Positions 14,399 through 53,632 of a DNA stretch of 64,000 bases are shown piece by piece; position 1 is the first letter of the stretch, and each line of letters starts with the position of its first letter. The position numbers and the translations under genes were made by a program. Origin of the DNA: Candidatus Nomurabacteria bacterium (GTDB lineage: Bacteria; Patescibacteriota; Minisyncoccia; Phycocordibacterales; UBA9973); contig JAPLXS010000012.1 in assembly GCA_026395965.1 (NCBI GenBank), positions 36,116-100,115 on the forward strand, in the 5' to 3' direction. Under the pieces are notes generated by a model. The model saw nothing but the letters and a program-made list of their open reading frames with translations. It searched no databases and was not told where the DNA came from.

Positions 14399-15163
14399 AT
14401 GAATTTATCTTTAAATAAAAATTTGGGTAATAAATATTCAAATCAATCGCAAAAAATAAGAGTTATTACTGAAAATTGGGTTCTAAATCAAATATATTGT
14501 CCAAGTTGTGGTGGTATTATAACTAACTATGTAAACAATAAACCTGTTGCAGATTTTTATTGTAAAAAGTGTGTTGAAGATTTTGAATTAAAATCAAAGA
14601 AAGGAAAAATAGGAAAAACTGTACCTGCTGGAGCGTATTCTAAAATGATTGAAAGGATAAATTCCTCGACAAAACCAAATTTCTTTTTTATGGGTTACTT
14701 GGGGACTTTGTGTGTAAATAATTTTTTTGTAATACCAAAACACTTTTTTATTTCAGAAATTATAGAAAAAAGAAAGCCACTTAGTAATAACGCAAGAAGG
14801 GCAGGTTGGGTTGGTTCAAATATTATTTTTTCAAAAATACCAAAAGCAGGGCAAATTTTTTATATTGAAAATGGTAAAGAGATTTCTAAAGAAGAGGTTT
14901 TAGAGAAATGGCAAAAAACAGTCTTTTTAAAGAAAATTAAAAGAGTAGATGCTAAAGGTTGGATTTTAGATATTATGAATTGCATTGATGCTTTAAATAA
15001 AAATGAGTTTACGTTAGTAGATATATATAAGTTTGAATCTGAATTAAAAAACATTCACCCAGAAAATAAGCATATCAAAGATAAAATCCGTCAGCAATTA
15101 CAATTTTTACGAGATAAAAATTATATTGATTTTGTTGGTTCTGGTAAGTATAAATTGAAGTAG
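14399..15163 (+). CDS. dpnI-like: DpnI-family (Dam-replacing family) methylation-dependent type IIM restriction endonuclease, PD-(D/E)XK catalytic domain plus C-terminal winged-helix
   Basis: 254 aa, the same length as S. pneumoniae DpnI, and collinear with it from memory: YSNQSQKIRVITENWV, YCPSCGG, PVADFYCKKCVEDFELKSKKG (D..E-x-K), NPNFFFMGY, RKPLSNNARRAGWVGSNI, IKDKIRQQLQFLRDKNYIDFVGSGKYKL. Confidence 0.85.
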   Translation: MNLSLNKNLGNKYSNQSQKIRVITENWVLNQIYCPSCGGIITNYVNNKPVADFYCKKCVEDFELKSKKGKIGKTVPAGAYSKMIERINSSTKPNFFFMGYLGTLCVNNFFVIPKHFFISEIIEKRKPLSNNARRAGWVGSNIIFSKIPKAGQIFYIENGKEISKEEVLEKWQKTVFLKKIKRVDAKGWILDIMNCIDALNKNEFTLVDIYKFESELKNIHPENKHIKDKIRQQLQFLRDKNYIDFVGSGKYKLK

Positions 15164-15281: not shown

Positions 15282-15938
15282 CTACTTTCCTTTGATTCTT
15301 ATACCAGCACCAGGATATGATTGGATACCATTAATAGCTTCTAAGTCACTTGAGGAAACCAGCCCAACAACCTCGTCATTTTCTACGAGCATGATAGGTC
15401 CGCCAGAATATCCTTTTGGCGTAGGGAAATTTAGTAATACATGCAGTGATTTAACTTGCATGTTAGTGTCTTTATCTGTTCGAATGATATTTTGAACCTT
15501 AACTATGTTTCCTCTTGAATATGATATTTGAATCCTTGCGGATATTAATTCAAACTTAGTGCTAACCATTTTTAATAAAGGTTTGTTTATTGAGGTTTCC
15601 TGGAGGGGAAAACCTACAGCATACGCCTTAACGCCATTTGTTATATCCGTGCGAGAAGCTCTGAGGAATTCTGAGGAGTGTCGAGATATTCGACAAATTG
15701 TATAATCTTCTGATGGTTTGTAATAGGTAATTGAAGGATTTTTTAAAATTTCACCAGTAGAATTTATCAGGTAGATATCATATGTGTAATTTGGCATTAA
15801 TACATGGGCGGCTGTAACAAATTCTTCTTGGGAAACAAAAAACCCTGTACCAAGTAATTTAGGAAGTACTTTTTCTTTTGGTTGTTTACCATCCATTTCA
15901 ATGATGGCATATATTGCATTTTCAATATTTTGACTCAT
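15282..15938 (-). CDS. Trypsin-like (S1 family) serine protease, cytoplasmic (no signal peptide)
   Basis: His motif GTGFFV..TAAHV, Ser motif GYSGGPIM, and chymotrypsin-fold spacing. Confidence 0.7.
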   Translation of the reverse strand: MSQNIENAIYAIIEMDGKQPKEKVLPKLLGTGFFVSQEEFVTAAHVLMPNYTYDIYLINSTGEILKNPSITYYKPSEDYTICRISRHSSEFLRASRTDITNGVKAYAVGFPLQETSINKPLLKMVSTKFELISARIQISYSRGNIVKVQNIIRTDKDTNMQVKSLHVLLNFPTPKGYSGGPIMLVENDEVVGLVSSSDLEAINGIQSYPGAGIRIKGK

Positions 15939-16197: not shown

Positions 16198-16884
16198 TTA
16201 ATTAACAGGGATAGTTTCAAACATATTATCAAAACTTGAAACCTTCAATGTATTAACTATTTCTTCTGAAGCTTTAACTAGATCTTTCATTATCTGGAAA
16301 GACAAATCTGTTACCTCAATTAATTTACCATGATCAAAAGAATATGTATTTTCATTATATACTATTGGTAAACTAGCTTTTTTTTGCTTATCACAATAAT
16401 AACCATTATTATGAACAAGATTTCTTAAATGTCTTCCAAGATCAAAAACTGAAGAAAGATGTTTGGTTTCTATTTCTTTAAAAAGACATTCGTAAATGTT
16501 TTTAAAGTCGCCGAGCCCGTCATTACATGCACCTGGCTTTACATGTAATAGAATATTTCTAAGTGACCATTCAAGCCGTGAATAGAATATTAGATAGTAG
16601 CCCTTATACATACATACCTCAAATTCTCTCTTAAATTTAGTTATATCTTCTGGAGTTAACAGTTTCTTTTCCTCCCAAAAATCCACTTCTTTAAATTTGG
16701 TTTGAGCCAATTCAATAGCAACAGCATATGAATGTAATACATTGGATAGTTGACCAAAAATTGTCACCCTTAGATCATTCTTATCATCTTTCATTGAAGG
16801 ATATTTCTTTAGATTATCCTCATATAATTTAAAAGATAGTTCAACAGCCTGAGTAAAATTTGTGATATTGCTTGCATTTAACAT
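16198..16884 (-). CDS. Hypothetical protein with two R-x(4-6)-H motifs (possible HEPN-like / Abi-like)
   Basis: RNILLH (R-x4-H) and RHLRNLVH (R-x6-H) in a helical 228-aa protein. The assignment is tentative. Confidence 0.4.
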   Translation of the reverse strand: MLNASNITNFTQAVELSFKLYEDNLKKYPSMKDDKNDLRVTIFGQLSNVLHSYAVAIELAQTKFKEVDFWEEKKLLTPEDITKFKREFEVCMYKGYYLIFYSRLEWSLRNILLHVKPGACNDGLGDFKNIYECLFKEIETKHLSSVFDLGRHLRNLVHNNGYYCDKQKKASLPIVYNENTYSFDHGKLIEVTDLSFQIMKDLVKASEEIVNTLKVSSFDNMFETIPVN

Positions 16885-17065
16885 ATAAAAAATTTATAAA
16901 TTCTTAATTAGGTAATTCAGGAGCATTTTCTGAATAAGTTGTCCTCAATTTTTATAGGCCATTTATTTTATCAATTTCATAATGATATTTTTACTAGCTG
17001 CGGAAATGTAATGGTTTTTATAATAGTTTCATTATAAGTCTTTTTAAAGTAAAAACCAAATCAAA

Positions 17066-17090
17066 AACAGCCCCTTCCGGAGCTGTTTTT
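17066..17090. terminator. Bidirectional terminator hairpin aacagcccc ttcc ggagctgtt plus T-run
   Basis: GC-rich stem followed by TTTTT on the plus strand and an A-run on the other side. Confidence 0.55.
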
Positions 17091-17094
17091 GTAT

Positions 17095-17310
17095 ACTTCT
17101 CATACTAGAACTAATTGGTGAAACTACAGAGACCGCGAGTACGCTTATCGACTACCACGTAGTCAGGTACTTTTCCATCTACGATAAGGAAAAGTCTTTC
17201 GATTCTCTGACGCACGTGACGCAGGTCACGTGCTTAGGGTAACGCAAGAAAAAGGCTTGTCCTAAGACAAGCTCATTTTTCAACGCGTGACCCTACGGGT
17301 AATTTATTGG
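17095..17310 (-). repeat. Copy 1 (no intact tRNA) of a tRNA-trailer structured repeat element family
   Basis: ~70% identical to 17925-18120. It contains the conserved core ..CGATAAGCGTACTCGCGGTCTCTG.. and GTCAGAGAATCGAAAGACTTTTCC. A palindromic hairpin CACGTGAC-CTGC-GTCACGTG is inserted, and an acceptor-like GTAGGGTCAC lies next to a terminator palindrome. Confidence 0.6.
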
Positions 17311-17393
17311 AACTCTATTGTAGAGAATATAAGGGGATATAAGGTATTGAAAGATTGAAAATGTGAAATAAAGTATTATAATAAGGAAATTAT

Positions 17394-17915
17394 ATGAAAA
17401 AATTAACTATAGCAGTAGGAACAACTTCTTTACAAAAAATTAGTTATCTTAAGGAAGTATTAAAAGAGTTAGAGATAAAATCATCTATTAAATCTATTGA
17501 TGTAAAAAGTGGGGTTTCCGAACAACCAATAACATCAAGTGAGACTAAAAAAGGTTCCATAAATAGAGCAAAAAAAGCCTTGAAAGAAATTAAAGACTCC
17601 TATTTTTCTTTAGGTATAGAAGTTGGATATCATAAATATTCAAAAGATAAATATGAAATTTTTTGCTGGGTAACTTTAATTGATGATAGTGGTTATCAAA
17701 TATCTGGTCAGTCTCATAAATTTTTATTACCAGAATATCATCAAAAATTCTTACATAGCGGAAAGTATCTTGGAGATAATTTAGATGGTTATTCTAAAAA
17801 AAATAAAAATTTTGTTGATGTTTATATAGAAGATATGATCAGACATCGCAAACCATTTATTGTTGGTGCATTAAAAGATATTTTAGTTAGATATTTTAAG
17901 AAAGAGGATTTTTAA
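17394..17915 (+). CDS. yjjX-like: Inosine/xanthosine triphosphatase (non-canonical purine NTP phosphatase, YjjX family)
   Basis: VKSGVSEQPITSSETKKGSINRAKKA matches the YjjX VESGVPEQPFGSEETRxGAxNR block; ~170 aa. Confidence 0.65.
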   Translation: MKKLTIAVGTTSLQKISYLKEVLKELEIKSSIKSIDVKSGVSEQPITSSETKKGSINRAKKALKEIKDSYFSLGIEVGYHKYSKDKYEIFCWVTLIDDSGYQISGQSHKFLLPEYHQKFLHSGKYLGDNLDGYSKKNKNFVDVYIEDMIRHRKPFIVGALKDILVRYFKKEDF

Positions 17916-17924
17916 ATTAAATGA

Positions 17925-18120
17925 CGTCCTTAACAAAGGGGACAGAGACCGTGAGTACACTTATCGAACCCTACTGGTTCAGTACACCTTTTCAAAGTAT
18001 TTTTGCATAGCAAAAATACTTAATGAAAAGCTTTTCGATTCTCTGGCGCAAGCAAAGAAGTTTGCTTGCTTAGGGTCACAAATTAAAAAGCACCGACTGA
18101 AAAGTCGGCTTTTTAATTTG
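17925..18120 (-). repeat. Copy 2 of the tRNA-trailer structured repeat element, immediately 3' of tRNA-Glu
   Basis: It contains an inverted imitation of the tRNA-Glu 3' end (GTGACCCTA-[23-nt hairpin]-GCCAGAGAATCGAA) and the conserved core CGATAAGTGTACTCACGGTCTCTG. A terminator hairpin (18085-18115) makes a ~28-bp extended palindrome with the tRNA acceptor end. Confidence 0.6.
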
Positions 18121-18192
18121 TGACCCTACAGAGAATCGAACTCTGATTTTATCCTTGAGAAGGATACGTCCTAACCGTTAGACGATAAGGCC
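18121..18192 (-). tRNA. tRNA-Glu (anticodon CUC)
   Basis: Manual fold gives acceptor GGCCTTA/TAGGGTC (two G-U pairs), D-arm TCGTCTAACGGTTAGGACG, anticodon stem-loop TATCC-TTCTCAA-GGATA, and T-arm CAGAG-TTCGATT-CTCTG. CCA is not encoded. Confidence 0.8.
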
Positions 18193-18482
18193 AATATAAT
18201 TACGAATTAAAATTAAGAATTACAAAATAAATGTAAATAAAAATAATATAATTAATACGTAAATACATATACAAAATAGCAAAAATACAGTATTAATACA
18301 AGCCAAGTATTTACTATGAGTAGGGAATATATGTCTAAATATATGCATATATGTTATTATTTAGTAAATAAGCACACATATTGACAATATATGATGTATA
18401 TGCTATACTATTTTTAAGTGTGATTGATAATTTTGGTTAATTTGGAAAAATGAAAAATTCGTTTTTCTAAATTAACCAAAAT

Positions 18483-18848
18483 TTGAAAATCATGAAAAAA
18501 GTAGTCAGTTATTTTAAAGCGATTTTTACATTAATATTTAGAGCAATCTTTTTATTAATAAGAAAGGTTGATAAATCTATTTTGAAAATTGTGGAAAAAA
18601 ATCCTAATTTTACAAAATTATCTATCATACCTTTGGTTGTGTATTTCTGTATTTGGGGGGTTTATATGTTGTGTATTTGCATGATTATATTTTCATGCGA
18701 AAATCTAGCAACACCAAATTGGATGCATACATGGGAATATTTGAATTTTCATAATTTTTTAAATCCTAGTTTTTTAGGAACCATAGAAATTATGTTATGC
18801 CTTTATATTATTAGGGTATTAAGTTATCTTAGTAATAAATTATTTTAA
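18483..18848 (+). CDS. Hypothetical membrane protein
   Basis: Hydrophobic 121-aa ORF followed by the terminator aaaaaccgtatttatacggttttttt (18846-18872). Confidence 0.45.
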   Translation: MKIMKKVVSYFKAIFTLIFRAIFLLIRKVDKSILKIVEKNPNFTKLSIIPLVVYFCIWGVYMLCICMIIFSCENLATPNWMHTWEYLNFHNFLNPSFLGTIEIMLCLYIIRVLSYLSNKLF

Positions 18849-39772: not shown

Positions 39773-39797
39773 AAAGAAAAGGCATAAAAGCCTTATG

Positions 39798-39841
39798 CGT
39801 GTGCTTGGAATCGGACCAAGGACTTCTGTCTTTTAAATGGC
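39798..39841 (-). repeat. Direct partial duplicate of the 3' half of tRNA-Ile (anticodon-stem 3' strand through acceptor end), 40 nt downstream of the intact tRNA
   Basis: GACAGAAGTCCTTGGTCCGATTCCAAGCACACGCA versus GACAGAGGTCCTTGGTCCGATTCCAAGCACACGCA in the tRNA, one mismatch. Confidence 0.65.
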
Positions 39842-39877
39842 AGAGAGTTATAAAATGAAAGAGATTACCGCCCTGTG

Positions 39878-39949
39878 TGCGTGTGCTTGGAATCGGACCA
39901 AGGACCTCTGTCTTATCAGGACAGCGTTCTACCACTGAACTACACACGC
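39878..39949 (-). tRNA. tRNA-Ile (anticodon GAU)
   Basis: Manual fold gives acceptor GCGTGTG/CACACGC (perfect), D-arm GTTC-AGTGGTA-GAAC, anticodon stem-loop CTGTC-CTGATAA-GACAG, and T-arm CTTGG-TCCGATT-CCAAG; 72 nt. Confidence 0.85.
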
Positions 39950-40177
39950 ACGCAACGTACTAATCTATTTCATTTTTAACGAGCGAACCATTTATTTACC
40001 AAGGGTTACCTCAGGACAGCGTTCTACCAACAACTACACACACGCTATTTAAGTACTTCAAAAAAATAAATTCATACTTATCTTTAAAAGATACTGTTAG
40101 ACTATATCAAAAAATAGGTTCATTTGCAATCAAAAAGACCCCCATAAGGGGTCTTTTTGATAACGATAGTATATTTA

Positions 40178-51351: not shown

Positions 51352-52767
51352 TTATGACAATAATTCTTTTAATATTTTCTGAACTAAACCTGGGTTTGCA
51401 CTACCCTTGCTTTCTTTCATAACTTGGCCCACTAGAGACATTATCGCATTTTCTTTACCACCCTTGTAGGTAGCGACAACTTCTGGGTTTGCATTAATTA
51501 TTTTCTGTACAATTTCTTTAAGAGCACCTTCATCATGGTTTTGTATCAATCCTTTGTCTTCAGCTATTTTGCGTGGAGATTCATCTTTTAGAACTATCAT
51601 AGCTAGTATGTCTTTTGCTCCACGAGATGATATTTCACTATCACTTACCATCACTATCAACTCTGCAAAGTTTTTACTATTGGGTAGTGTTACATCTTGG
51701 TTTATTTTCTTCATTCCTAAATAATCAGAAGTGATATAATTGGAAGCTATTTTTATCTTGTCTTTATTTGCTAAAATATTTGATACTTCTTCAAACCAGA
51801 TTCCCAAGTCTTGATCTGTAATATAACTTTCTATGTCTTCGTTTTTGATACCAAAATCATTTATGTATCTTATTCTTTTTGCTTCAGGAAGTTCTGGTAA
51901 CTCACTTCTCATTTTTTCATTATCAAAAACTTTACTCAAAAATAATTTTGGTAAATCTGGGTCTGGAAAATATCTATAATCGTTAGCATTTTCTTTTGAA
52001 CGCTGTGAAAATGTAGCCTGCTTGTTTTCATCCCAACCACGAGTTTCTTGAACTATCTCATGAGCACGGCCACTATCTAAAAGTTCAGTCATTCTTTTTA
52101 TTTCGTATTCAGCTGCTCTCTCTACTGCTTTAAATGAATTTATGTTTTTGACCTCACATTTTGTTCCGAGTTTATCCTTATCTTCTGAAATAGAAATATT
52201 TAATTCAACTCGCATTTGACCTTTGTCCATGTTGGCTTCTGAAACTCCAAGGTATTTTAGAAGTAGTTGGAGTTCTCTCCCAAAATCTCCTGCTTCTTTT
52301 GATGAATGTATAACAGGTTCTGTAACTAATTCCATAAGAGGTACTCCGCCGCGATTGAAATCAACAAGAGAAAAGTCCCCCTTGTCGTGCTTAGATGTAG
52401 CAGTATCTTCTTCTAAATGTACACGAGTAATATCTATACCGTGCAATTTACCTCCTGAAACTATCGGAAATTTGTATTGAGATATCTGGTACGCTTTTGG
52501 TATATCAGGGTAGAAATAATTTTTGCGATCAAATTCTGTGAAATCAGCAATATCGGCACCAAGAGCGAGTCCTACTCGTATAACGCTTTCAACTGCCTTT
52601 TTGTTGATAACAGGAAGACTTCCAGGGTGAGCCATACATACAGGACAAATATTTACATTTGGAGTTTTTTCATCTGGATTATTGATACATCCACAAAACA
52701 TTTTTGATTTGGTATTTAGTTCAGCGTGTACCTCGAGACCTATTGTTGTATAATACTGTTTAGACAT
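51352..52767 (-). CDS. gatB: Asp-tRNA(Asn)/Glu-tRNA(Gln) amidotransferase subunit B
   Basis: TIGLEVHAELNTKSKMFCGC. Confidence 0.9.
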   Translation of the reverse strand: MSKQYYTTIGLEVHAELNTKSKMFCGCINNPDEKTPNVNICPVCMAHPGSLPVINKKAVESVIRVGLALGADIADFTEFDRKNYFYPDIPKAYQISQYKFPIVSGGKLHGIDITRVHLEEDTATSKHDKGDFSLVDFNRGGVPLMELVTEPVIHSSKEAGDFGRELQLLLKYLGVSEANMDKGQMRVELNISISEDKDKLGTKCEVKNINSFKAVERAAEYEIKRMTELLDSGRAHEIVQETRGWDENKQATFSQRSKENANDYRYFPDPDLPKLFLSKVFDNEKMRSELPELPEAKRIRYINDFGIKNEDIESYITDQDLGIWFEEVSNILANKDKIKIASNYITSDYLGMKKINQDVTLPNSKNFAELIVMVSDSEISSRGAKDILAMIVLKDESPRKIAEDKGLIQNHDEGALKEIVQKIINANPEVVATYKGGKENAIMSLVGQVMKESKGSANPGLVQKILKELLS

Positions 52768-52846
52768 ATAAAGAGTATATCAAAATTTGTAAAATTTTGA
52801 AAATTATGTAATTATATGAAGGTGTTTTAGTGTTAAAAGATGAATT

Positions 52847-52928
52847 GCCCGAGTGGCGGAACTGGTATACGCGCACGACTTAAAATCGTGTCTCGTAAGG
52901 GATGTGGGTTCGATTCCCACCTCGGGCA
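52847..52928 (+). tRNA. tRNA-Leu (anticodon UAA), type II with long variable arm
   Basis: Acceptor GCCCGAG/CTCGGGC, anticodon stem-loop CACGA-CTTAAAA-TCGTG, variable arm TCTCGTAAGGGAT, and T-arm GTGGG-TTCGATT-CCCAC. Confidence 0.85.
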
Positions 52929-52938
52929 CAATAAAAAA

Positions 52939-52964
52939 ATCACAGTGAAAGCTGTGATTTTTTT
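52939..52964. terminator. Terminator hairpin atcacagtgaaagctgtgat plus T-run, embedded in a 56-bp palindrome that includes the tRNA-Leu 3' end
   Basis: ctcgggcacaataaaaaaatcacag..ctgtgatttttttattgtgcccgag. Confidence 0.6.
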
Positions 52965-52965
52965 A

Positions 52966-53280
52966 TTGTGCCCGAGAGTAAGCCAACTGCTTGGCTTGCG
53001 TGTGGGAATCGAAAGACTTTTCGTTCTCTGGCATTGGCCAGAGCGAAAAGTACCTGGCTAAGTAGTAGCCGATAAGTGTACTCACGGTCCCACTTTGCTT
53101 CACTCGTGAGGTGGGAATCGAAAACCTTTTCCTTATGAGTGTACTCACGATTCCACCGATGCAAAAGGTATACTGTTCCTGTAAGGAAAGATATCCCACT
53201 TGTGCTATTCGATATATGTACTCACGGTCCCAATGCTTCACTCGTGTGCGTCGATTAGTATACTCACTCTCCCACTCACC
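52966..53280 (+). repeat. Copy 3 of the tRNA-trailer structured repeat element plus two further tandem degenerate core repeats, immediately 3' of tRNA-Leu
   Basis: Inverted imitation of the tRNA-Leu 3' end (TGTGCCCGAG-[23-nt hairpin]-GTGTGGGAATCGAA), then GACTTTTCG..GAAAAGTACCTGGCT..GCCGATAAGTGTACTCACGGTCCCAC. CGATA(A/T)(G/A)TGTACTCACGGTCCCA..GCTTCACTCGTG recurs at 53208-53250, with a partial copy at 53253-53280. Confidence 0.6.
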
Positions 53281-53299
53281 TATTCAAAAAAAATACTCC

Positions 53300-53632
53300 C
53301 TATTGAGGAGTATTTCCATTTGAAATATTTTGAATATCTTTCTCTGTCGTAGTTTTTAAAACATTGTTAGATAAATTGTCTTGTATTTTTTTTAATTCTG
53401 AATTTGTTGTATCTATAAATATACCTACTACTTTCGATTTTATTGGTTTCAGGATATAATTTTCCCAAATATTTTTTGATTGCTCTTCAATATATGAAAT
53501 ATTTTTCTGAAATTGAACTGATTTTATGTTTGAAACTATATCTACTTTAAATAAAATTAAAATAACAATTATCAAGATGATTAATCCTCCTGTGTGTATT
53601 TGTAATCTTGGTTTTCTTTCGTCTTCGTTCAT
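53300..53632 (-). CDS. Hypothetical membrane protein
   Basis: 110 aa with an N-terminal TM helix. A terminator hairpin overlaps the stop codon (53292-53314). Confidence 0.4.
   Translation of the reverse strand: MNEDERKPRLQIHTGGLIILIIVILILFKVDIVSNIKSVQFQKNISYIEEQSKNIWENYILKPIKSKVVGIFIDTTNSELKKIQDNLSNNVLKTTTEKDIQNISNGNTPQ

Follow-up and report, generated by a model that had tools for sequence, protein, structure and literature searches.

A short non-coding element recurs immediately behind the tRNA-Glu(CUC) and tRNA-Leu(UAA) genes of a 64,000-nucleotide (nt) stretch of a Candidatus Nomurabacteria genome (contig JAPLXS010000012.1), which we refer to as the window. Transfer RNA (tRNA) genes in the window were called with ARAGORN and Rfam, and the flanks were read directly over 16800-18500 and 52700-53300. 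Downstream of tRNA-Glu, the order is the tRNA, a palindromic trailer with a bidirectional terminator, an inverted copy of the acceptor 3' strand and T-arm that is split by a hairpin, a hairpin core and finally the T-stem partner CAGAG (copy c2, Table 1). This is the order given in the first-pass annotation of this DNA. The hairpin at the acceptor/T-stem junction is also present as described there, but it measures 22 nt plus linkers instead of 23 nt, and the conserved core spans about 85-100 nt with three hairpins and not about 60 nt. The inverted arm of c2 is identical to tRNA-Glu at 21 of 21 positions, and an NTPase_I-T gene sits between the c2 core and a repeat of the tRNA end, so that tRNA-Glu 3'-end repeats bracket the gene.

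A second copy, c1, follows the same plan as c2 and has no intact tRNA beside it, as had been annotated. Its neighbour is a 10-nt remnant of the tRNA-Glu end, its acceptor arm TAGGGTAAC contains one mismatch, and its distal 14 nt (17118-17131) directly repeat tRNA-Glu positions 61-74 with 12/14 matches. Copy c3 lies beside tRNA-Leu and has Leu-specific arms (GTGGG/CCCAC and CTCGGGCAC; 21/21 against tRNA-Leu), while positions 61-65 are all that is left of its direct repeat before the next, older copy. The four truncated copies that follow each end in CCCAC or a one-base variant (TCCAC, CCCA), which corresponds to tRNA-Leu positions 61-65, and this stack is partly conserved in L039, one of the loci found outside the window (given below as L numbers). 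An open reading frame (ORF) of 92 amino acids (aa) at 52963-53241 (-) spans this array of copies; it has no Pfam match and is almost certainly not a gene. When the family covariance model described below was run on the 64 kb, c1, c2 and c3 were found at 100-126 bits (E approximately 1e-21 to 1e-27), and the degenerate array at 53112-53232 was the sole further match. The third tRNA gene of the window, tRNA-Ile(GAU), has no element copy.

Table 1. Features at the tRNA loci of the window, with positions counted from the first nucleotide of the window.
Feature	Position	Strand	Basis and remarks
Oldest terminator at the Glu locus	17064-17091		27 nt past the c1 direct repeat
Copy c1, read as the older insertion	17118-17243	+	Covariance model 124.2 bits
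Older terminator, assigned to the first insertion (c1)	17244-17286		Hairpin and T run
Direct repeat of tRNA-Glu positions 65-74 (GTAGGGTCAC, tRNA strand)	17287-17296	-	Exact 10-mer; distance to the tRNA end 824 nt
Conserved stretch (about 55 nt) containing the promoter-like hexamers TTGGAA ... TATAAG	17297-17350	+	Alignment; directly after the tRNA-end repeat
NTPase_I-T (YjjX-like) gene	17394-17915	+	Pfam PF01931, E = 4e-20
Copy c2	17943-18079	+	Sequence; covariance model 100.7 bits; DNA fold z = -8.7
c2 T-stem partner CAGAG	17943-17947		
c2 three-hairpin core (P1-P3)	17948-18033		
c2 T-loop copy	18034-18040		
c2 T-stem 3' strand copy	18041-18045		
c2 hairpin P4, 22 nt	18048-18069		
c2 inverted acceptor 3' strand, discriminator and next base C	18071-18079		
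Palindromic trailer and bidirectional terminator, between tRNA-Glu 3' end and c2	18080-18119		Read from sequence
tRNA-Glu(CUC)	18120-18192	-	ARAGORN; Rfam tRNA model 59.9 bits; proposed target of the Glu-locus insertions
tRNA-Ile(GAU)	39877-39949	-	ARAGORN, Rfam
tRNA-Leu(UAA)	52847-52929	+	ARAGORN, Rfam; proposed target of the Leu-locus insertions
Palindromic trailer and bidirectional terminator, between tRNA-Leu and c3	52930-52967		
Copy c3, beside tRNA-Leu	52968-53093	-	Covariance model 125.8 bits
Stack of four truncated, decayed older copies	53094-53275	-	Sequence; covariance model 39 bits at 53112-53232

A structured family at tRNA and tmRNA gene ends

A gapped pattern derived from the three window copies was scanned over one genome per species and matched at least 118 stretches. 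Among the matches listed, about 65 are real copies, nearly all of them in Paceibacteria, Nomurabacteria or Parcubacteria assemblies and two in Saccharibacteria; the closest relative of the window among these matches is a Paceibacterota assembly with a 91% identical GatB. The covariance-model search that had been suggested with the first-pass annotation recovers the family. Built from 56 copies, the model finds 89 copies in 64 loci among the matches listed, so the structured repeat family described 3' of tRNA genes extends far beyond the full copies of the window. Fifty-six of the 89 copies are directly convergent to the 3' end of a tRNA or transfer-messenger RNA (tmRNA) gene, 13 are second or later in an array, 4 lie at a locus edge and 16 are "orphans" with no adjacent tRNA. 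The targets in the listed loci are 13 tRNA species (Ser, Glu, Arg, Gly, His, Tyr, Ile, Lys, Leu, Gln, Met, Pro and Asn) and tmRNA. The tmRNA genes with an element (L049 4792-5184, L073 1620-2013 and L112 3108-3534) have element arms that match the tmRNA 3' end (CATCTCCAC). In a shorter subfamily, a single hairpin CGCCG ATACTG CGGCG takes the place of P1 and P2; these copies (L017 7352-7466, L100 3486-3601, L069 4178-4292) adjoin tRNA-Ser genes, and a longer copy sits farther from the tRNA.

The unit measures about 125-150 nt, or about 190 nt with its accompanying terminator, and contains no credible ORF. Read along the tRNA strand, it consists of the tRNA, a new palindromic trailer/terminator, inverted positions 74-66, hairpin P4, inverted positions 65-54, the core, a direct repeat of positions 61-74 and the displaced old trailer/terminator. 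The inverted copy thus covers positions 54-74 of the neighbouring gene, and P4 splits it at the 65/66 junction. The core folds into three hairpins with conserved loops (AGTA, YAC and GCAG), and six helices are supported altogether: an acceptor-like stem, a T-like stem and P1 to P4. In the named structure 86.8% of cells are paired, compared with 65% in shuffles and 34-45% when the partners are slid. Double-change cells number 541, against 178 in shuffles and 82-112 in the slid controls. The covariation noted in the first-pass annotation is therefore real and strong.

The stems are almost purely Watson-Crick. P1, P2 and P4 together contain 981 Watson-Crick pairs, 3 G.T, 11 A.C and 13 other pairs (n = 1008), i.e., a G.U fraction of 0.3-1.1% whichever strand is read, whereas the acceptor and T stems of tRNAs at the same loci have 4.9% (52/1068). 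The asymmetry of 3 versus 11 is a weak hint that the folding strand, if one folds, is the tRNA-sense strand. Compared with shuffles, RNA folds reach z = -2.6 to -5.1, and DNA folds of complete copies reach z = -9 to -11.

These pairing data bear directly on whether the copies are structured non-coding or cis-acting RNAs, namely tRNA-like acceptor/T-arm minihelices with expansion hairpins that co-evolve with the neighbouring tRNA and serve in tRNA processing, as a decoy, or as a 3' untranslated region (UTR) or terminator module. The six-helix architecture with its strong covariation, stable folds and conserved loops would fit such an RNA, as would the tRNA-like topology of the tRNA-strand fold, where would-be G.U pairs are in slight excess (11 vs 3). 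The element always abuts a terminator, and the window copies c2 and c3 are found in the 3' regions of genes with the same orientation. However, G.U pairs are nearly absent, and several complete copies have their direct repeat right against the old terminator, with no room left for a promoter (judged from spacing, as no promoter scan was made). Nor is there an orientation bias relative to neighbours: the closest ORF upstream points the same way in 21 cases and the opposite way in 31. Arrays of decaying copies and the signature of a target duplication likewise speak against an RNA, the acceptor pairing is dispensable (absent in 3/3 window copies), and there is no Rfam match. We consider it unlikely that the copies act as RNAs in any of these roles.

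Against Rfam 15, including the tRNA, tmRNA, retron msr, ribozyme and IS605/HEARO RNA models among others, only the three tRNAs of the window reach the gathering threshold; a permissive Rfam scan of 16900-18300 gave nothing above E = 0.04, and all its matches were below the gathering score. A tmRNA and a split, permuted or intron-containing tRNA were rejected as identities, since ARAGORN and Rfam find nothing, the tRNA 5' half is absent, and the 5' arm is complementary to the 3' strand instead of copying the tRNA 5' strand. The group I introns of Patescibacteria tRNAs sit in the anticodon loop (PMC13011429) and are unrelated to the element. Scans of viral contigs with three patterns returned chance matches only, all of which fail the covariance model. 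No description of the family was found in full-text literature searches, and in agreement with the first-pass annotation the family is apparently undescribed.

Insertion signature and origin of the arms

The arms were compared in 40 element/tRNA pairs, and all 40 share the arrangement of tRNA, trailer-terminator and element. A perfect 14-nt repeat of positions 61-74 is present in 15 of the 40 copies (two of them shifted by one column). In complete copies, another trailer and terminator often come after the repeat (L062, L054, L025, L016, L092, L006 and L083, and in the window at c1, 27 nt away). In L062 the succession is tRNA-Gly, terminator 1, element 1, CTCGTATCCCGCAC, terminator 2, element 2 and a degenerate repeat. 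In L085 the displaced terminator resembles the terminator adjacent to tRNA-Glu in other genomes, and the proximal terminator differs. The displaced terminators and the repeats together indicate that a terminator, an inverted arm and a core are inserted at the tRNA end as one unit. The unit closest to the tRNA is the latest arrival, and older units are pushed outward, truncated and decaying. As the tRNA-proximal terminator is unlike the displaced older one in both L085 and L062, the terminator is brought by the element, and we infer that the terminator at 18080-18119 came along with c2.

The layout of the window suggests a corresponding history. At tRNA-Glu, c1 would be the first insertion, and the terminator at 17064-17091 is presumably the original tRNA-Glu terminator. 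A later unit would comprise the terminator at 18080-18119, c2, the NTPase_I-T gene as its apparent cargo and the promoter-like segment at 17297-17350, bounded by the exact GTAGGGTCAC repeat, which marks the old tRNA-Glu end displaced by the newer insertion. At tRNA-Leu, c3 would be the newest of at least five insertions. The repeat may be a duplication from a staggered cut or an identity segment of a recombination site, and its length is 14 nt or possibly anywhere from 9 to 15 nt. Stacked copies do not meet at a fixed point but at various positions around P4. Because of this scatter, precise recombination at the P4 loop was rejected as the origin of the junctions, which are better explained as later deletions of the long palindrome formed by the repeat, the old terminator and the old arm.

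The inverted arm is a copy of the gene beside it. It reproduces the T-loop variant of its neighbour (for example, TTCAAAT for His and TTCGATC for Asn) as well as the T-stem 3' strand, the acceptor 3' strand, the discriminator and the next base. It contains CCA only where the gene encodes CCA, and otherwise runs on into the A-rich trailer of the gene, so the arms are copied from the gene and not from the mature tRNA. For the same reasons a retro-copy of a mature tRNA and tRNA-primed reverse transcription were rejected as origins. Where intact, the 5' arm complements the 3' strand exactly, which makes it, on the tRNA strand, a direct repeat of positions 61-74. Whenever the tRNA contains a G.U pair (5/5 cases), this arm departs from the 5' strand of the tRNA itself; pairing with the discriminator and N74 is seen in 13/14 cases.

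Some inverted arms do not match the local gene. The variant CGCC--CGC is common to tRNA-Ser loci of four genomes (L006, L017, L035 and L100). In L085 the inverted arm TAGGCCCAC is unlike the local tRNA, and in L108 the arm CTCCCGC adjoins a tRNA-Gly with acceptor CGACCGC; in all of these cases the direct repeat is of the local type. An imperfect inverted arm is combined with a perfect direct repeat at 9-11 loci. The simplest reading of these alignments is that the inverted arm moves together with the element and that the target supplies the direct repeat.

Copies also show signs of turnover. The nearest relatives of a copy are usually found at other tRNA species in other genomes. L039 belongs to the relative with the 91% identical GatB. 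The tRNA-Leu genes of the window and L039 are identical and their element cores are about 97% identical, but when window 52930-52999 is compared with L039 643-722, the P4 and terminator stems are wholly different and perfectly paired between identical A/T-run flanks. The relatives at other tRNA species and this mosaic point to turnover and mosaic recombination and away from undisturbed vertical inheritance.

Such turnover raises the question of whether a dedicated recombinase is needed at all. DNA uptake followed by homologous recombination, with the tRNA gene and the 61-74 repeat as homology arms and with hairpins maintained by palindrome-templated correction, might account for the mosaic structure and the swapping of modules between close relatives, and templated correction is expected to leave perfect Watson-Crick stems. 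One-sided homology accounts for stacked copies, and the failure to find an enzyme agrees with this explanation. It leaves unexplained, however, why the same core with matched arms occurs at many tRNA species and why the 3-bp P1 stem and the loops are conserved, and the inverted arms of L108 and L085, which are unlike the intact local tRNA, are not easily given by homologous replacement. Homologous recombination as the sole means of movement thus appears distinctly unlikely.

Collectively, the target repeats with displaced terminators, the stacked insertions and the arm variants borne by the element favour a mobile element or recombination module. The copies are probably a non-coding, non-autonomous, site-specific insertion element of Patescibacteria whose insertion site is the very 3' end of tRNA and tmRNA genes. 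Two of the three readings offered in the first-pass annotation, an att-like module and an element resembling miniature inverted-repeat transposable elements (MITEs), are thereby favoured, while the third, a cis-acting tRNA-trailer RNA, is disfavoured.

Several points weigh against the insertion element. Neither a pair of filled and empty orthologous sites nor an excised form was observed; a metagenome scan for orthologous tRNA-Leu loci by way of GatB yielded no comparison, and synteny was not conserved. No recombinase or transposase was found beside any copy, among the approximately 30 window ORFs tested or among recurrent neighbours, and the enzyme is therefore hypothetical. Terminal inverted repeats are absent, the ends being an A-rich trailer on one side and ...CRCGGT on the other, and a multi-helix architecture with conserved loops also looks like structured RNA. 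The search pattern forced GAGTAC, TTTTC and GAAAAG, so the conservation of these motifs is partly ascertainment; in model matches that were not pre-selected by the pattern, the sequences of P1, P3 and the P4 loop can vary while the architecture is constant. In 15 of the 40 copies a perfect inverted arm goes together with a lost direct repeat, which requires later deletion or the insertion of cargo or other DNA at the 65/66 junction. Finally, insertion as such leaves the matching of the arms to 13 tRNA species and tmRNA unexplained, and co-evolution with the adjacent tRNA by gene conversion is an alternative to guidance for this matching.

Cargo, neighbouring genes and other DNA at the loci

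The neighbourhood of the copies was searched for an enzyme. Clustering of 603 neighbouring ORFs and Pfam annotation of the recurrent ones revealed no linked recombinase; the genes that do recur encode RuvA, Fpg, RecG, ParB, a sigma factor and similar proteins, and no protein family was found associated with the element. The window ORFs tested are housekeeping genes, with no IntI integrase among them, and exact-protein look-ups gave matches in the source genome only. The first-pass annotation had also proposed looking for an integrase or reverse transcriptase, and neither was seen near the copies.

The segment of about 55 nt behind the tRNA-Glu end repeat (GTGACCCTAsGGGTTAATAATTGGGGAC..ATTGTAGAGAATATAAGGG) is found at 17297-17350 in the window and at 1719-1850 and 2758-2880 in L118, where the module of segment, repeat and terminator precedes two other genes behind tRNA-Glu. 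It thereby links a remnant of the tRNA-Glu end to three unrelated genes, which encode NTPase_I-T and proteins of 122 aa and 254 aa. From the alignment, the segment looks like a portable module of promoter and attachment site, and single-gene cargo seems, with moderate confidence, to travel with the element system.

Such cargo could also point to a conventional origin, in which the copies are attL/attR scars of integrase-driven islands or prophages that once integrated in tRNA genes and have since been lost by deletion. Classic targets of integrases include tRNA and tmRNA genes. Direct repeats of the tRNA 3' end with displaced terminators, apparent cargo genes at the Glu loci and defence-type genes nearby (DpnI in the window, HNH and methylases in L006) would agree with this origin. 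Yet an integrase family normally has one target, whereas one conserved core serves 13 tRNA species and tmRNA here, and no integrase was seen at any of the 64 listed loci. An inverted target copy and a hairpin core are foreign to integrase att sites, and the units of about 190 nt are complete and recur intact across genomes. An origin as integrase scars is therefore highly improbable.

Other DNA is found at the same gene ends. Just past the oldest Glu terminator lie genes for a DpnI-like restriction endonuclease (14399-15163), a trypsin-like peptidase (15282-15938) and a 228-aa protein without a Pfam match (16198-16884), and this cluster may be an older island at the same hotspot. In seven orphan copies (L006 3400-4930, L025 7600-8000, L042 1-200, L048 1150-1248, L057 3870-3962, L046 1020-1100 and L059 7690-7760), only the final 3-4 nt of the tRNA remain behind the terminator, and foreign DNA comes next. 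This DNA begins with TG (TGT or TGA) in 5 of the 7 loci, like the ends of DDE or Tn7-like transposons, and about 100 nt of conserved end sequence is common to L025 and L042, and likewise to L048 and L057. Genes for an HNH_5 endonuclease and two N6_N4 DNA methylases are present at the orphan site of L006. Another type of mobile element thus seems to insert between the tRNA end and the terminator of the element described here.

The tRNA-Ile(GAU) gene is flanked by partial direct copies of itself (39796-39835 and 40010-40045), with a 3'-half copy about 45 nt downstream, beside a terminator-like hairpin, and a 5'-half copy about 60 nt upstream. The arrangement is unlike the element and resembles the scar that an integrase crossover in the anticodon region usually leaves.

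Possible mechanism and relation to known systems

The Watson-Crick-only stems, the conservation of the loops, the absence of visible space for a promoter and the high stability of the DNA folds suggest a single-stranded DNA form. The active form of the insertion element would then probably be folded single-stranded DNA, and its two arms would together recreate the duplex found at the end of the tRNA gene. The 21-nt inverted arm might mimic the target or guide the element to it, and P4 would branch exactly opposite the 65/66 junction, where apparent cargo and truncations occur. A hypothetical enzyme encoded elsewhere may recognise the hairpins and exchange strands at the tRNA end. It is possible, if rather doubtful, that the element is the DNA part of a programmable recombination system guided by base pairing. 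The 21-nt arm would in that case anneal to the sense strand at the end of any tRNA or tmRNA gene, with P4 marking 65/66, and a structure-specific enzyme exchanging strands at this junction would give integron-like stacks and single-gene cassettes behind tRNA genes.

In its mode of working the element comes closest to recombination sites that fold as a single strand, as integron attC and the attP(+) hairpin of CTX-phi do; the integration of CTX-phi is described in PMC3442271. Shared features are a conserved structure with free stem sequence and nearly pure Watson-Crick pairing, a hairpin that rebuilds a target-like duplex, a newest unit next to the attachment site, stacks in which some units have an apparent single cargo gene, and the lack of a recombinase inside the unit. 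In contrast to attC, the element has no R''/L''-L'/R' boxes and no GTTRRRY core (in the consensus of 56 copies), and it has no dif-like site. It further differs from both in its three-hairpin core, its own terminator, and a stem that mimics whichever tRNA or tmRNA end adjoins, giving many targets.

Genomic islands of tyrosine integrases at tRNA and tmRNA genes resemble the element in inserting at the 3' part, restoring the gene end, leaving a direct repeat of the 3' segment and building up in tandem. The element, however, has no integrase, measures only about 190 nt, forms one family for 13 tRNA species and tmRNA, and contains an extra inverted copy of the target. Casposons are transposons with a Cas1 integrase, mostly archaeal, that duplicate 14-15 bp of a tRNA gene 3' end and insert in tandem. 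Compared by description, the element shares the 14-nt repeat of the extreme tRNA 3' end and tandem insertion at the same site, but it has no terminal inverted repeats, Cas1 or PolB and belongs to bacteria of the Candidate Phyla Radiation (CPR).

MITEs, repetitive extragenic palindromic (REP) sequences and Correia-type elements are, like the element, short, non-coding, multi-copy, hairpin-forming and non-autonomous, and may supply terminators; MITEs also share a target-site duplication, represented here by the 14-nt repeat of positions 61-74 (perfect in 15/40). Unlike them, the element has no terminal inverted repeats, shows no related insertion sequence (IS) among its neighbours, is strictly specific for tRNA-like gene ends and has target-matched arms. 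The DNA guide of IS608 and the bridge RNA of IS110 are similar in placing a target-complementary segment beside a protein-binding hairpin. In the element the complementarity spans 21 nt and is split by a hairpin, no transposase is adjacent, and guidance is putative. Palindromes derived from IS200/IS605 lie 3' of a fixed tetranucleotide without duplication, whereas the element has a 14-nt repeat and a tRNA-dependent target.

The tRNA-like domain of tmRNA and the bacterial Y RNA YrlA (PMC4201824) share with the element an acceptor/T-arm minihelix without an anticodon arm. The element differs from them in having no Rfam match, being depleted of G.U pairs, having its T-loop displaced by an insert of about 90 nt, and copying the sequence of the neighbouring gene including its trailer. 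Since for each of attC sites, integrase islands, casposons and IS200/IS605-derived palindromes a defining feature is absent, we file the element as a new variant among site-specific non-autonomous mobile elements, outside each of the families compared.

CPR bacteria have very small genomes that are considered poor in mobile DNA. Despite this supposed scarcity, the element occupies 56 of the 90 tRNA and tmRNA genes in the listed loci, a rate that is biased because the loci were selected for containing it. It replaces the terminator of the tRNA gene and marks a hotspot for other DNA, i.e., single genes, restriction-modification genes and transposon-like ends. For genome annotation, it is a source of tRNA-like fragments and of spurious ORFs such as the one that spans the copies behind tRNA-Leu. 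If the tRNA-matched arm does select the target, the element would represent a natural form of target recognition that is re-addressable among many related sites, which would be of interest both for recombination mechanisms and for genome engineering.

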